A stretch of 64,000 bases of DNA, from NCBI GenBank assembly GCA_039545335.1, contig BCIN01000002.1, positions 1,191,118 to 1,255,117 on the forward strand, written 5' to 3'. Positions 801 to 38,218 of the stretch are shown piece after piece. A model generated the notes under the pieces. That model was not told the origin of the DNA. It was given only the letters and a program-made list of their open reading frames with translations, and did not search any database. Position 1 is the stretch's first letter; each line of letters begins with the position of its first letter. The DNA is from Kondoa subrosea. Lineage: Eukaryota. The translations under genes and the position numbers were made by a program.

Positions 801-1453
801 GTTTCATACTGCGTTTCGACGCAAGAAGGAGGCAACCGGTATGCTCTTGATCTGGATCGTTTGGCAAACAGATCCGCAGAGCATGAACCCGGGCCCCCTA
901 TAATGATGCCCCCGTTTGCAAAATGAAGTATTCGGAGGAAGATGAACAACGCGATGAAGCGGAAATACGAAGTCTAGCTTTGAAGTAAAGCATGGAAAAG
1001 TTGAAGAATGAGAAGAAGAAAGGAGACCGTTGTTCGAGCACTTTGTGGGCTTGGAGGCTGATCAAAGCATAACGCTTCGGATATAGAGCAGCAGATGAGA
1101 CTGGTCTGGACCTGAATCCAACGACAGAAACGCGAATTAGACACAGAGGGGCACCTTGTTGTTGGGCAATGCATTCACAGTGACAGTTGCTGCCGTCAGC
1201 TGATCGCAATAATGTTAATTTGATACAACTCCGATTTTCTACGAATGTACCAAATAGGTCTGGCAAATAGTGTATTTGGCATAGTGTAGTATTGATAGAA
1301 CGCATATATGCTGACGACAGTCCGCTCGGAGAATAGAGGTATGCCGATCAGAGTGCAGAAATTCGGTTCATGGGTCCAGTGATTGGTGTAGAGCATATGA
1401 TATGGTAGAAATATGTGTCGATCGACTGTGTTGGGTATATGAGTCTTGCTTGA

Positions 1454-29527: not shown

Positions 29528-29704
29528 CTGTTTATGGCATTCTGTCTTGTATAACACCGCTCAAATAGAATAGCGCCTTTCTGCGACCTGTTATGAAAGA
29601 CGCGCTGCAGGCCGGGGAAAACGATCAGCTCTGAGCATCTTTTGCGTAAAGCATATCTTCCAAACCAATTTAGCCGCTTCGCATCGACGCGAACGGCCAA
29701 ACAA

Positions 29705-32680
29705 ATGGCAAAGAAGAAAGCTGCCAGTGTAGCTCAAGAGCAGGGATCTGGTTCTATTCTATCGTTCTTCTCTGCAACGCCTGTCAAGACCAAGCCAACC
29801 AAAGAAGTGAAGCGTAAAATCGCACCTCACAAGAAATCAGCTCCACCAACTCTAGCTGTATCTTCTGTCGTGATAGACTTGTGCTCTGAGTCGGACGTCG
29901 CTACCAAACTACCACAACCAGCTACCAAGAAAGCTAGGGAAGCTACAGTCGATTGCTCACCTCCGCCTGAAGCTGTCATTCCTCTAGACAAGGGAGAAGG
30001 GTGTTCCAAAGCTACTCTACCACTTGCAGAAGATATCTGGCTTGTACCTGATGATGATGAGCAAGAGATTGTAGGAAGCAATGGATTGGAAGGCACTTTG
30101 AACCCAGATTATCGAGATGAGAACGAATTGTGCGAACAAGATGCTCAGCAAGCAGTGGAAGGAGATGCGGAGAGTGATTGTGATTCAACCAGAAGCAGAA
30201 GAAGCATGTCTATCGATCAGAGGAGATCTGTTTCTGCTGTTCCTCCGCCTCAACGTAAATCTCTCTCGTCCATGTCCTTTGGTTTTGTAGAATCTGCTTT
30301 CTCAAAGAACAAGAAAGGCAAAGGGAAAGAGAAAGCTGTCGAGGAAACGCAAGCGCCTACTGCTTTCACTGCGTGAGTTGAGTTTCGCAGAATCAGGATT
30401 TTGCTTATACTTTCTGCTTTTCAGCCTTATGAGTGGACACAAGGAAGATATGGCTTGGAAGACTGCGGCCAAGAATGAGAAGATCAAGGTAGACCTATCG
30501 TCTATTTGCTAAAACAGATATCTGATTGGTATTACAGGGCGTTCGAGGTGAACTGCGGACCGCTCCCTTCTACAAAGTTATGGAAGGCATGCCTCTAGCT
30601 GTAGATGCATTCCGCTACGGAAAGATACCAGGCGTCAAGGCTTACTTTCTATCGTGTGCACATCCGTCCCTCATCTTGGAAGATGTGTTGACGCTTTTCT
30701 GTACAGCCATGCTCACTCGGATCACTACACAAATCTATCCGGTAGTTGGAATCATGGTCCTGTCTATTGTTCGAAAACGACTGCTAATCTGATCATTATG
30801 AATCTGGGCGTCAAGGTATGCTTTTTTTCGGCTACATTACTACACAAGCTGATCAAAGTACTAGCCGCAATGGGTTAAACCGCTGCCATATGATCAGACA
30901 GTTGTAGTCGAAGGCGTCAATGTCACTATGCTCGATGCTAATCAGTTCGTCTTTCCTCTTCAGAAGCTATCTAATCGCTCATATAACATGTAGCTGTCCT
31001 GGATCCTCTCTATTCCTGTTCGAAGGCCCTCAAACAGCAGCTAATTCACCTTATGCCAAAACCCCGAATCGGATCTTCCGTTATCTTCATTGCGGAGATG
31101 TACGTCAGGCTTCTTCTACATTATGAACTTCATATTCATATGTTCTTTCCTGACCTACAGTTCCGTGCTAGCCCAGCTCATCTTCTGCATCCTGCAATGG
31201 TCGGTAAACGGATCGATATTTGTTACCTCGATACGACCTATTGCTCGCCCACGCATACTTTTCCAGCACAAGAACAAGTCATCACAGCTTGTTCTGAACT
31301 CATCCGATCGAGAATCTTGGAAGGGGATGAATCTGCTTTAAGAAGAGGTTTGGGAAGTTCGAAATCGACCATCAAGTCTGAAGCGCTTTTCAAAGGCTGG
31401 TTAGGTAATGGGAAGAAAGAGGAAGACGATGATTATGATGGACATCTCTGCTTGAGTAAAGTAAAGAAGAAAGAAGAGGAAGAAGAAGCGGCGGAATTGT
31501 ATTGTGAGGTTGATCAAGTTTCGATGGATGAAGATGAAGAGAAACCTGCTATTGATTCTTTGACGCTTGATGAGAAGATTGAAGACCAGCTGGACTTGTC
31601 TGACCATGAACAGCGGGCGATGCAAGCAGAGCAACCGCTTCTAGCTAAAGAAGAAGAGGACAAGAAGCTGAAAGTCGAAGAAGTAGATGAGAAGAAGCCT
31701 CGAACGAAGGAACATATCTTGGTTCTGATTGGAACATATAGTATCGGCAAGGAGAGGATTGTGAAAGGTCTGTTTCCCTTGTCCAGTCTGTTAACTAGTA
31801 TCTGAACAAACATTGATCAGGCATTGCGAAAGCTATCGGATCCAAAATATACTGCAGCGATCACAAGATGAAGTTGCTTCAGTGCATCGATGAAGATCCA
31901 GAGCTACAAACTATGCTTACAAGGGATCCGCTTGACGCTCAAGTACACGTCACCGGCTTGTTTGCTATCAATCGCGATACGCTCGGCGACTATCTAGACT
32001 CCTTCAAAGGTCATTTCACCAAGATTGTATGCCTCTTGCTATCCTCTCACCACTCTACTGAGAATCACTCTAGATTGGACTGCGGCCGACAGGTTGGACT
32101 TTCAAGCCAGATGGAGTGAAAGAGGTGAGCAATCGAGAGTCTCTGCGTTTATCGCCGCTAATACACATTGATCTGTTCACAGAAATCACCTAGCGTTTCC
32201 AAAGTCATCGCCAACCAAACTCATAAGAACTACTCGCCAGCTTTCCTTTATCCGCAACGAGATTCTACTGAACGCTTGCAAGCTTACGGTGTACCTTATT
32301 CTGAACATAGCGTGAGTTGCATGCACAACCTGCGCGCCTTGACACTGATCTGGTTTCTGCGTCGCAGTCTTTCCGAGAACTCGTACGTCCTGCTATTGCT
32401 CTACATTATTCATGTTGAGCCATCCATTTGCTCGGTACAGACCTGTTTCTGCGTGTCCATGGATCATGGTCAGTTCCCTCTCCTTCAATGTCCCGTCTTG
32501 CGCTGCTCATGTGTATGTGTATGCGATATAGTCCGAATTATCGCTACGGTCAATGTAAACAGCGAAACTTCTCGAGCAAAGATGAAGTCCTGGTTTGAGA
32601 AATGGCAAGCCGAGCGGAAAAGGAGGAGGGATAACGGAGAACCCGCAATGGTTCGTCTCTATGACTCTACCTTCTGCTAG
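29705..32680 (+). CDS. PSO2: DNA cross-link repair exonuclease SNM1A/Pso2 (metallo-beta-lactamase/beta-CASP)
   Basis: [76 protein letters not shown]. Confidence 0.93.
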
Positions 32681-33277: not shown

Positions 33278-34436
33278 TTAGTAGACCATTTGTTGAGGAC
33301 CTGAAGGGTGATGAGGTGCCCACATTTGCTGGTGTTGCTGCTGCTGTTGACCTTGTTGTTGAGGGTTGAAGTAATAACCTTGTTGTTGAGAATATTGAAT
33401 GCTTTGTTGAGATCTTGTGCCTCTTCTAGTATGGCCATGACCTTGACCACCAGAAGACATGTCTCTTCTACGTTGGGAGAAACGTTTAGGTGGGAATTGA
33501 CATTCTTCATCACTTGATGAGCCGGAACCTTGAGCTGAAACACCCAACATGACACCACCTCCCAATACACCTACTTTTCCCTGTGCATGTTCCGTTACTA
33601 CAGTGGTTGAAGAAGTAGGGGAAGAAGTAATCTTGCTAGATGAGGTTGAAGAAGTGGTTGTGGTTGCAGAGGAAACTGAAATGTTTGAGGTGGATCTGGT
33701 ATGGTTCAATTTCCTTCCGCCTTTGCGACCAACTGAAGTGGATGTTGGTAGAGGTGAGAAGAGAAGGGATTCTTTTGATGAGGATTCAGATGAAGAGCAA
33801 GGTGAGTCGGCACGTTTTATAGGTTCGTTTGATGGAACGAAAGCGGAGGCCAACAAGTTTGAAGCGGATAATGGAACAGGTGTACCAGGAGTGATTGAAA
33901 CTGCTGGGAATGAGAAGGAAGGCTTTCTGGAATCCGGATGCAAGATTTGAATCGCTCTTGATCTCTTTGTTGGAGAGGATGTTATATCGGATAAAGGAGG
34001 TAAAGAAGGGGCTGGTGAAGGAGCAGAGATGGGTAGAGCAGCAGGAGCTAATTGAGGTGTGCTTAGCCGACCGAAAATTTCCATCAATGGCGCTTGAGGA
34101 GCATCATCAATTCGGCTAATGCCAAGACCAATATCAGTATAAGGCCGTCACGTAAGCGTCGGATGAGAATACTGACTAGCAAACGCAACCAGGATCAATC
34201 CATATAATCCATTTCGAACCCAAATCCAAGCTTAAACCTTGCAAACTTTCATCGCCAACCGTTATAGATCTATAGGCTGAGCCTTGTTCTGTATCGTGAG
34301 GGTACCAGTGACCGGCATAACGAGTTGAAAGAGTCTGACAGAAGGCGGGCTCGATAAAAGAAGACGTGGCTGAGGAAGTCGAGGGGAGAGCGTGGTGCTT
34401 GATGAAAGCTGCTGCTGCTTGAATTTCGTTATGCAT
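33278..34436 (-). CDS. BTG/Tob (APRO) domain protein, 365 aa, with long S/P/Q-rich disordered tail
   Basis: Exon 34436-34177 plus exon 34115-33278 (61-nt GT-AG intron). MHNEIQAAAAF, Box A RYAGHWYPHDTEQGSAYRSI, Box B WIIWIDPGCVCYRI. Confidence 0.85.
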
Positions 34437-34962: not shown

Positions 34963-37807
34963 TTAAGCAGGCTGCTTCTCTCCCTTTTCCAAATCCCCTT
35001 CTTCAGCAGCTGGAATCTCTACTGTTCCTACAACAGGTTGTGAACTCTTTTCATCCCCCGCTTTCACTTCTGCTCCCTTTTGAATCGTTTGTCTTTGTAA
35101 AGTATAAACTCGTAGTCCGAACATGAGACATAGTCCAACGAAGACTAGTGGCTGCAATGATACGCGATCAGGTTAGGCGTAAAGAAAGTGATGGAAGTAA
35201 CGAACTGTATCCACTATCCAAACTAATCGGACTGATCGAGCGAAAGCATGCAGGACTTGATTCCTCAATTCAACAGGCTATACACTTGCATCAGTATCTT
35301 GTTCCAATACTAAGTAAAAGAACGACTCACCTGAATCTTACTCAGATCCTGCACGTTGATCGATAAAACCGAACTACTGCTTCCTTCTTGAATAGCCAGA
35401 TCATAAGGAATAGCACGAAGACGTTTAGTTACTTCGTTCGAGTATATCGTTCCTCCTATCGTTACACCTAGAGCTCCTGACATTGTGCGCATGAGAGCGA
35501 AAGTAGAAGTAGCTGAAGCGATGCTGCAGACAGAATTATATTCAGCGACTGCAAAGATATTTGCGGAGGGAAACAAACTCTTTGACTGGCATTGCTGCTT
35601 GTAAAGCGACCAAAGGTACTTGGAATAGAGGTCTGTAGAAATCCTTATCAACCTCTGTCCGGAGTGAATCAGGAACTGAACTCACCCTATACCGAGCGCA
35701 GCGACAAGAGTAGTAAGGACCTGAGTAGCGACAGAAGAGTTGTAGTCGAGAAGGATCATCGTTCCTTGTCCAACGCAGAACACGAACCAAGATCCGATGA
35801 GGAGTTTCTGACGTAAGCGAGATCAGCTGAACATCTTTGAATGGATTTCAAAGAGAGACCTACCTTATATTCGCCAGTCTTGGTGAGCAGTACTCCTGCG
35901 AAAGTACTTGCCAGGGCACCTCCGAGCGAATAGGCTGATAAAAGAGTAAAGTGAGACAAAGAATCGAGCATATCGTCACAGATCACTCACGTAATGTACG
36001 CAGACCTGCAAGAGTAGCTGAGTTGCCTAAGATTTGATAGTACTGGACAGGCAGAAATAAGCCGGATTTCTTACTGGAGAGGTCAAAAATGCTTACGAGA
36101 GGAATGTCTGCTCAAAGAATAAGATCATGAGAGCACAAATAGTATGAAGACACTGCACTTACAGAAACTGCCGGTGAAGAACTGCAACCACCCATTAGCT
36201 CGGCCCAAACGCGCTGACGGCGAACTCACCACAAGTGAATGTAATACTACAGCTATCAAGATGATACCCGTCGTCCGAGTATGGAATAAACGAGGTGAGA
36301 TAATGGGTACTTGTTTAGTGTAAGCTCTGCAATAGTGTTAGCTGAGTTGCACGAAATAGCTTGATGTGTCTCACTCGTTGACACCAGCACCGATCAGTGA
36401 ACAAAAGCCGACGACTAGCAAAGCGATAGTAGAAGGCTTCGACCAATCCTCTTCTCCTTGCACTAGACCGATGAGTAGCATGACGACACCTCCGATGATC
36501 AAAGTGAGACCAATATAATCAAGTTCGGCTGCATGTTGTCGTGCAGTCTTGTTCTTGACTGGATTGAGGTGAAGGAAAAAGAAAAGCACAGATGCTGCTA
36601 TGGCACCTGAAGCGAAGCAGAAAAGCAGGTCTTAGCAGAAGGCAAGAAAAGACTAGCTTATACTGACCTGTTGGGAGATTTAACCAGAAAAGCCATCTGG
36701 CAGATCAGTCAGCGTCAGCGAGAGCTCAGCAGATTACAGAGCCAAAATATTCACCTCCATTGTCCAGCGTCAGCCAGAGATCCGCCAATTACAGGACCTG
36801 AAATGTACAATGAGCTCAAAAGGTTCACTGCCTGTTATGGTTACAAACCAATCGCACTATCAAGGCATCAGTGAAAGGTGAGGATCTGAGGATTAGTAAA
36901 TACCTAGCTATTCCCCAGGTGGCGCCAAGCAGACCTCCGTACTTCCCTCTCTTCTCAAGACTGACAATTTGGCTGATGATGATTTGCTGTGCCGCCAAAA
37001 GGAGTCAGAAGCCGCTTTAACGCCTTTCTTGTTCTCGAACTCACACATGAAGTCATCATCAGTCCTCCCTGTTAATCAGACCACTCAGCATGCGAAGACC
37101 AAAAGTTTTGAGAATCTGCTCACTCCGATTCCAGCTACCGCTCGACATACAATGAGCCAGATCATTGTCTGAGCTGCACCACAAAGAGCTGAACCCAACA
37201 AAAAGATGAAAATGCCGCTGCAAAAAGTCAGTCTATCATCAGATCGCGAACTTTTTGCTACACAAAGCAATACTTACGTGAATAGAGCGTATTTAGCACC
37301 GAAACTGTCGCAGACCTTGCCAGATACTGTAAGAACGAGAGCTTCAGTAATTCTTCCCTACCAAAGAAGACGAATCAACACACTAGGTGTCATGCAGGCA
37401 GCGGCCAAAAGATAAGCACTGGCAATCCACGTATAGCCTTGATATGAATGTCAACTCATGATAAATGAGGCGAACCCGTTTGACCTACCTGACCCCGGCA
37501 GCTCTGTTACAATGCGAGGGAGAGCGGTCGAGACGATCGTTTGATCCAATGCAGCCAAGAAGACAGTAAGCATCAAACCAGCAAAGACAAGGACGAGATT
37601 GTTCTTTGGTAGTTCATGTACTTCTTTGCTTGACCAACCAGCACCAGCTGGTCCTTTCTTCTTTCCCTTTACAACATCTTGTTCTACTACTGTCGCTTGA
37701 CTATCATTCGATTGACGTTCAGCTGATCGATCAGCGTTTAGTTGAGTTATAGGGAGTTCGCCTTCTTTGCCAGGGAGGCCATCCGGTGCTTTGATATTAT
37801 CGTTCAT
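34963..37807 (-). CDS. MFS drug:H+ antiporter (DHA2, 14-TM type), many short exons
   Basis: VFLAALDQTIVSTALP, WIASAYLLA, GSALCGAAQTMIWLIVCRAVAGIG, GPVIGG...WRWLFWLNLP, LDYIG, SATSTFALMRTMSGALGVTIGG. Confidence 0.92.
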
Positions 37808-38218
37808 GATGTAAAAGGTACAGACAAGTGTATCGCGTGAATCCTATGTTATGGGCGAGTCCCCTAGCAGACAGTGATGACGAGAAGATTTGGCCGATGT
37901 GAATCTCTTTATATAAGAGCGCGCAAGTGAGTCCAACAAGGCAAGAGAGTGATCGGAGAGTTATGAAGCAGATCTAATGAGGGTATCAAGCTAATCCAAA
38001 AACAAGGCTCTAAGGTCGTTTGTGGAAGGTATCGATTATCATTTTCACGCGCGGGACGCAGATTTGCATTTTACGCCGGCACGCTTATTTATGGGTTATC
38101 CGCTTATTTCGGGTTTGGTCAAAACCATTGTAGACAATGTCAAGAGCATAATATGAGACACACAAGCAAGTAGATGTTGACAATCATGAAACCCGATCCT
38201 TCTTCTCCTCCTTCTCAT

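Follow-up and report, generated by a model that had tools for sequence, protein, structure and literature searches.

A BTG/Tob-domain protein of basidiomycete type with a shortened linker between Box A and Box B and a tail rich in conserved motifs

Introduction

In human Tob proteins, the N-terminal BTG domain is followed by a long, S/P-rich tail that includes a Q-rich part. The domains of Tob1/Tob2 (Pfam PF07742; PDB 2D5R, 2Z15) and of BTG1/BTG2 (PDB 3DJU, 3E9V) share their fold, with the signature segments Box A and Box B, and their CAF1-facing residues (Y65, W103 and D105 in BTG). Papers are cited here by PMC number, from excerpts of their text. According to these, F55, D65, W93 and D95 of Tob1 and a Box A histidine are required for Caf1 binding, which their mutation weakens or abolishes (Doidge 2012, PMC3517456); D65 of Tob is one of three residues termed essential, and E98 is dispensable, the E98A exchange having no major effect on Caf1 binding (PMC3517456). 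On the side of the deadenylase, S201, C202, K203, Y197 and K254 of CNOT7 are named for the contact with BTG/Tob (Bai 2015, PMC4656213), and E247 and Y260 of CAF1 are named in PMC11774319. The link with the mRNA is made through PABP, which Tob reaches via a PAM2 motif and BTG1/2 via boxC (PMC10157403, PMC8632095).

The family is spoken of as metazoan (PMC8632095, PMC12746107), and the btg gene of Dictyostelium was presented as its first non-metazoan member (PMC2837350). Excerpts of a 2013 review describe single-celled eukaryotes as being without BTG/TOB (PMC3870282), and those of a 2023 review describe fungi as being without any identified BTG/TOB homologue, the absence from Schizosaccharomyces pombe being used there to explain a dispute over an inhibitory or stimulatory action of PABP on Caf1 (PMC10157403). 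Nothing on fungal BTG is found in the excerpts of PMC3868889 and PMC13133959, and no study of a fungal BTG protein was found in the literature searched, subscription papers and supplements, in which fungal BTG genes may be listed, lying outside its scope.

In the following, a BTG/Tob gene in a 64,000-nucleotide stretch of DNA of Kondoa subrosea (the window, to which all positions refer) is described and compared with these systems. A sequence-only reading had proposed that it encodes a fungal BTG/Tob-family deadenylation adaptor and that the fungus retains an animal-like pathway for recruiting CAF1 to PABP-bound mRNA.

The gene and its BTG domain

The gene occupies positions 34436-33278 of the minus strand, starting with the ATG at 34436, and would encode 365 residues in two exons (table 1), the splicing being deduced from sequence signals. 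Read through, the frame of exon 1 meets a TAG stop just past the W-x-D-P core of Box B; removal of a 61-nt intron, which splits the codon of Tyr87, restores the frame down to the stop at 33278. When every GT..AG pair spaced by 40-200 nt was scanned, 16 candidates left a frame longer than 150 aa, among which only the 61-nt intron both leaves Box B and the last strand of the domain intact and brings the frame to the stop at 33278. In length it fits the introns of the CAF1 gene of the same genome, which measure 50-62 nt and carry similar signals, and the sequences of the relatives P0001 and P0002 run unbroken across the point of insertion. Box A is present as the sequence-only reading had it, and Box B would be completed by splicing, as it had also proposed.

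Table 1. Features of the BTG/Tob gene (positions in the window)
Feature	Position	Strand	Basis and remarks
Exon 1 (coding)	34177..34436	-	residues 1-86, most of the BTG/APRO domain; Pfam BTG E 1.3e-14, AlphaFold2 pLDDT 91.6, Foldseek
Box A, with His43 and Tyr55 (Tob1 H43, F55)	34263..34322	-	gapless phmmer alignment to Tob1
Box A-Box B linker, 22 aa	34203..34268	-	shortest of 48 measured rows; 36 in Tob1; DSSP of the model
Box B core, with Trp79 and Asp81 (Tob1 W93, D95); Cys84 in place of Tob1 E98	34185..34202	-	alignment to Tob1
Spliceosomal intron, 61 nt, inside Box B (inferred)	34116..34176	-	GTCAGT donor, CTGAT branch-like site, TAG acceptor; frame restored
Exon 2 (coding)	33278..34115	-	last strands of the domain and S/P/T-rich tail; open frame of 289 codons between stops
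SPxKR and AIQIxxP (CDK-type site, then hydrophobic strand motif)	33935..33979	-	alignment of tail-bearing rows
FSFP, [YF]xFP Cbk1-type docking motif (candidate)	33905..33916	-	motif as defined in excerpts of PMC4428629
Hydrophobic-x-PxTP motif	33878..33907	-	28/37 rows, 0.3 expected
HxRxxS NDR/LATS-type phosphorylation site 1 (predicted)	33686..33703	-	also in the closest tail, P0054
GxVxVLGGGVxLG motif (GKVGVLGGGVMLG), predicted two-strand hairpin	33542..33580	-	37/54 rows
HxRxxT NDR/LATS-type phosphorylation site 2 (predicted)	33416..33433	-	motif pattern
Q/Y-rich low-complexity end	33326..33409	-	direct reading; sequence not conserved

The protein is a true member of the BTG/Tob family, in a basidiomycete variant. 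Exon 1 scores 54.3 bits against Pfam BTG (PF07742; cut-off 23), with the profile being matched over its positions 1-110 across the intron, and all seven of its sequence matches in the PDB are Tob1 or BTG2. The AlphaFold2 model, computed for exon 1 only from a 46-row alignment, has as its best ten Foldseek matches Tob1, BTG2/TIS21 and FOG-3 (probability 1.00, TMq 0.75-0.84; FOG-3 TM 0.82-0.83 by query), so that the family assignment of the sequence-only reading is borne out by profile and by fold. Exon 2 matches nothing in Pfam at E up to 1 and is related to P0054 (BLASTP E 6e-18). The form W-[VI]-D-P-G-C-V of Box B is common to this protein and to basidiomycete proteins labelled in databases as containing a BTG domain.

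A search of the genome (18.9 Mb in 27 contigs) for BTG gave one match from one candidate. Similar searches with the Pfam profiles CAF1 and CNOT11 were blank, controls included, and the CAF1 gene was later found by pattern; such blanks are therefore false negatives of an intron-rich genome and carry no weight for an absence of CNOT11, and the BTG gene is likely, rather than certainly, present in a single copy, since the search can miss genes split by introns.

Around the coding region, a 5' UTR intron of 51 or 64 nt may lie on the minus strand at 34501-34451 or 34501-34438, where a GTCAGT donor could pair with either of two AG acceptors shortly before the BTG ATG. The convergent neighbour (about 29600-32680, plus strand) is a multi-exon DNA-repair metallo-beta-lactamase of SNM1/Pso2 type (DRMBL E 6.2e-07 on one exon), and the upstream neighbour on the same strand (about 35000-37843, minus) looks, by reading, like a multi-exon MFS drug-efflux-type transporter (TRI12 below threshold, E 0.0011).

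The shortened linker

The short segment between the boxes that the sequence-only reading had pointed out differs in length from that of Tob1, which counts 36 residues. The linker, taken as the residues between the GSAYR-type motif and W-x-D-P, could be measured in 48 of 54 aligned homologues (rows), six failing the pattern: it has 22 residues here, 23 in P0002, 24 in P0001, 29 in P0018 and 34-61 in the other 44 rows, the linker of P0003, which also looks short, belonging to a fragment. Compared with Tob1, 14 residues are deleted next to the position of D65. In the model of exon 1, helix between the boxes is limited to a turn of three residues, 63-65, and the model of the relative P0029 has two helices there. 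Most of the two inter-box helices of the five-helix, four-strand BTG domain is thus missing from the predicted structure; they are a structural feature and not part of the sequence definition of the family.

A decaying gene or an error of assembly behind the short linker was considered and rejected as the main reading, being very improbable: both exons are open, the intron signals are normal and the motifs of the tail are intact, and the linker cannot well be an assembly error because the shortening is common to independent assemblies, those of P0001 and P0002.

The surface facing CAF1

Four of the five residues on which Caf1 binding depends in Tob1 are kept, H43, Y55, W79 and D81 corresponding in a gapless alignment to H43, F55, W93 and D95. 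In the same register, the fifth, D65, is replaced by Leu65; Asp62, three residues earlier and ahead of the predicted helical turn, may act as a stand-in, judging from the model, although the short-linker relatives P0001 and P0002 have no clear Asp-Pro near this position. The dispensable E98 of Tob1 is replaced by Cys in 31 of the 36 tail-bearing rows matched at that position. Among the rows, Ustilaginomycotina-type P0031, P0050 and P0051 have Ala at the aromatic F55 position and no His43, and CAF1 binding there may be altered.

The CAF1 gene of the genome (contig C1, loci L005/L006) encodes a protein in which the catalytic D40, E42, D161, H225 and D230 are all kept, as are S201, C202, K203, E247, K254 and Y260 of the BTG-facing surface, with Phe in place of Y197. 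As these BTG-facing residues are also kept in most fungal CAF1 rows, they permit BTG binding but do not indicate it. Fungal-type CAF1 sequences that diverge around K203/E247/Y260 were also seen (P0143, P0146, P0164, P0165).

A predicted complex of exon 1 with a CAF1 of Sporobolomyces gave weak support for binding, with a score of 0.48 against 0.00 for the best of three controls, for a domain that is incomplete and a partner that is a stand-in (190 of 253 compared residues are identical to the genome's own CAF1). Between runs, at least 93% of the contacts are the same, with a partner pLDDT of at least 76. Of 78 solved pairs 51 attained the score mark, as did 2 of 108 mismatched pairs; scores of up to 0.60 among those passing were found for only 5 of the 78 solved pairs but for all four passing mismatches. 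Furthermore, the pass may simply reflect a similar complex, 2D5R, that is already solved.

Binding of CAF1 by the BTG domain is, on the basis of sequence and model, plausible. The opposite reading, in which CAF1 binding is lost or weakened by the shortening of the domain and the protein acts independently of CAF1, whether as scaffold, multimer or cell-cycle factor, draws on the deletion adjoining the D65 position, which is Leu in gapless register, on the Ala at the F55 position in some Ustilaginomycotina rows, and on precedents: FOG-3 of Caenorhabditis elegans (PDB 5TD6) forms a multimer (PMC6066285) and Btg of Dictyostelium is genetically linked to Rb (PMC2837350). These two proteins resemble the present one as non-vertebrate members of the family but differ in their flanking regions, and their functions, in the excerpts, are reported in cell fate. 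However, W44 and R56 are invariant and G52, W79, D81 and P82 are found in 44-45 of the 46 rows of the domain alignment, H43 and Y55 are kept, and the predicted complex with CAF1 lends a little weight on the same side, all of which makes a CAF1-independent role improbable.

The C-terminal tail

The tail, of about 260 residues, is long where that of BTG1/BTG2 is short. The G-x-V-x-V-L-G-G-G-[VI]-x-L-G motif defines 37 of the 54 rows as tail-bearing, the remaining 17 being fragments, frame-broken or of another type, and motif counts in these 37 related rows were compared with 500 shuffles each. The sequence-only reading had singled out the GGVMLG segment of this motif as isolated and the end of the protein as Q-rich; the Q-rich end is confirmed, and the glycine motif is there but has company, as further conserved motifs are found along the tail. 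An AIxI-type motif occurs in all 37 tail-bearing rows with a relaxed pattern and in 32 in the strict form AIxIxxP (0.1 expected), and in 30 it is immediately preceded by [ST]Px[KR], a CDK consensus. The hydrophobic-x-PxTP motif may resemble PxIxIT (calcineurin), and tail motifs may also be likened to the SHP box (p97) and to RAIP (raptor). A stretch AVQIxxP in the C-terminal tail predicted for the CAF1 of this genome (L006, about 1170-1190, minus strand) is similar to the AIQIxxP of the BTG tail, maybe by chance.

When P0029 was modelled in full length, its tail came out disordered except that the glycine motif forms strands 302-305 and 308-311, in a block of low pLDDT (61), with no readable sign of docking on the BTG domain. 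Back-translation of the motif as an exact pattern gave no second occurrence in the genome, and nothing usable, neither partner nor look-alike, came out of an atlas search for the hairpin motif. That the motif may bind a partner, as had been proposed, is suggested by its conservation and by this low-confidence hairpin.

The tail also resembles, in the co-occurrence of HxRxx[ST] sites and [YF]x[FY]P motifs in a disordered region, the substrates of the NDR/LATS kinase Cbk1, namely Ssd1 and Ace2 of Saccharomyces cerevisiae and Psc1 of Cryptococcus neoformans. The two motifs together predict Cbk1 substrates, the sites rising from a background of 0.36 per 1000 aa to 2.95 in proteins whose docking motif is conserved (PMC4428629), and the same pair served to assign Psc1 (PMC13712771). 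In the BTG tails the density is 3.0 per 1000 aa: HxRxx[ST] was found at 50 sites in 32 of the 37 tails (8.8 sites in 7.9 rows expected from shuffles) and [YF]xFP, at varying positions, in 19 (1.1 expected), counts that concern related rows and motifs noticed after the alignment had been viewed. Among 30 spacings compared, H-5/R-3 has the most sites (50; the next, with 28, also contains HxR), and it also comes first in a set thinned to ten rows (13 sites in seven rows; next best spacing, seven sites), and the 36 CAF1 tails used as a control contain one HxRxx[ST] site in 3031 aa. For this protein alone, the two HxRxx[ST] sites have a p of 0.008 and FSFP, which is without the [KR] of the [YF][KR]FP docking preference of Ssd1 (PMC4428629), a p of 0.054; five of the 37 tails, that of Mixia included, are without HxRxx[ST], and 18 without [YF]xFP. 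Mob-family genes are found at three loci of the genome. Ssd1 and Psc1 act in post-transcriptional control, as is proposed here, but none of the three substrates is homologous to the BTG protein, and Ssd1 and Psc1 bind RNA themselves, whereas the BTG protein has no RNA-binding domain.

How the mRNA may be reached

As in Tob, an N-terminal domain with the equivalents of H43, F55, W93 and D95 precedes a long S/P-rich tail, which here contains the NDR-type sites and the GxVxVLGGGVxLG motif and lacks PAM2. Neither a strict nor a loose PAM2 pattern matches the protein; the Pfam PAM2 model gave no match either, a weak blank in that the same model also missed three rows with the strict pattern. The strand after Box B, compared by eye, does not match boxC as defined in excerpts of PMC8632095. 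Recruitment to PABP-bound mRNA thus found no support, PAM2 and boxC both being absent, so that, of the animal-like CAF1 recruitment that had been claimed, the CAF1 part stays plausible, with its four residues out of five and the CAF1 surface kept, and the PABP part is unsupported. Instead, the tail points to kinase control rather than to PABP, as far as its sequence motifs tell.

The earlier view, a general adaptor of animal type bridging CAF1 to cytoplasmic PABP, would need a diverged or unrecognized motif. The genome does carry an MLLE-containing PABP-like gene on contig C2; residues 172-181 resemble PAM2, by direct reading, at Ala7, Phe10 and Pro12; and the strict pattern is found in 3 of the 54 rows (P0017, P0019, P0024), so that the link may be old. 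However, the PAM2-like stretch is without the hydrophobic residue at position 3 and is not kept in P0054, and the strict pattern is found in none of the 37 tail-bearing rows and the loose one in seven, this protein not among them; a PABP bridge is accordingly of low probability. As separate observations, a second MLLE domain locus exists (L004, G000:C8:674045-674215), and P0017, P0019 and P0024, being BTG rows of non-basidiomycete type, hint that a Tob-like layout of BTG plus PAM2 predates animals.

A protein that binds CAF1 with no route to RNA could also occupy the deadenylase and dampen or tune deadenylation under the gate of phosphorylation. The evidence for the interface would be the same; an APRO domain without a PABP motif slightly lengthened reporter tails, which was read as competition (PMC8632095), and CNOT7 is suppressed in vitro by Tob and BTG2 (PMC4656213). 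Three strongly conserved tail motifs argue, however, for additional partners, and we regard such a damper as unlikely.

The reading we prefer, and hold with about half confidence, is that of a basidiomycete-type CAF1-binding adaptor whose tail acts as a phosphorylation gate and which reaches mRNA through a partner other than PABP. Starting from the BTG/Tob fold of the N-terminal domain, the surface formed by Box A and Box B would, quite probably, bind the CAF1/Pop2 deadenylase of CCR4-NOT even though the two linker helices are mostly lost. The disordered tail would be a regulatory platform, with Cbk1 docking on [YF]xFP and phosphorylating the HxRxxS/T sites, and the SPxK site being phosphorylated as well, a step that we favour slightly. 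Because PAM2 and boxC are absent, the mRNA would be reached through another protein, probably an RNA-binding or decay factor that attaches to the GxVxVLGGGVxLG hairpin or to the AIQI motif, which is the step of which we are least sure. The outcome would be deadenylation of a subset of mRNAs, and not of all PABP-bound mRNA.

Distribution among fungi

A word-based search with exon 1 returned no homologue among 241 candidates; phmmer (HMMER) over 1.84 billion representatives gave 31 matches. A profile search also gave 31, many of which carry organism names, comprising Leucosporidium, Microbotryum, Rhodotorula, Sporobolomyces, Mixia, Cyphobasidiales, Jaminaea, Microstroma and Sympodiomycopsis, and one cluster includes a protein of Amoeboaphelidium. 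No ascomycete is among those named, in searches that were seeded with basidiomycete rows and are hence no test of absence. Several relatives in NCBI/UniRef are already labelled 'BTG domain' or 'anti-proliferative protein domain', and the labelled basidiomycete proteins (KAK4052083.1 of Microbotryomycetes sp., those of Leucosporidium, Rhodotorula toruloides and Mixia, XP_025359071.1 of Jaminaea) share the architecture and the tail motifs but have linkers of 35-61 aa; no functional study of them was found in the literature searched. The family is known to databases and apparently unstudied in fungi, and the wording that this fungus retains the pathway understates the spread, with labelled relatives across basidiomycetes.

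The form of the tail appears closest to that of Pucciniomycotina rows. In a 46-row tree of the domain, the protein is weakly joined with P0001 and P0002 (88/66) and lies outside a starred group of nine rows (95/93) with herring BTG4, only 12 of the 43 inner branches being starred. The tree, as far as a domain alignment goes, fits inheritance within basidiomycetes. A recent transfer from animals was also considered and is not supported, the domain standing among basidiomycete-type rows and apart from the group of herring BTG4, in a tree that is weak.

Concluding remarks

That public annotation already shows the family in fungi limits the surprise of finding it here. A broader view, which we put forward as rather doubtful, is that basidiomycetes have kept the BTG-CAF1 module but rewired it: the hairpin motif would have replaced the hooks for PABP, the choice of mRNA would be made via another partner, control would come from NDR/LATS signalling (Cbk1/RAM, Hippo-like), and the linker helices would be dispensable for CAF1 binding in this lineage. 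If true, a direct link would run from polarity signalling to poly(A) removal. The motifs of the tail are concrete hypotheses that can be mutated, and a fungal member that is probably single-copy, with a labelled counterpart (P0045) in Rhodotorula toruloides, a genetically tractable yeast, would make it possible to learn from a clean knockout, undisturbed by paralogues, what a BTG-CAF1 module does and whether bridging to PABP is ancestral in the family or a later addition.
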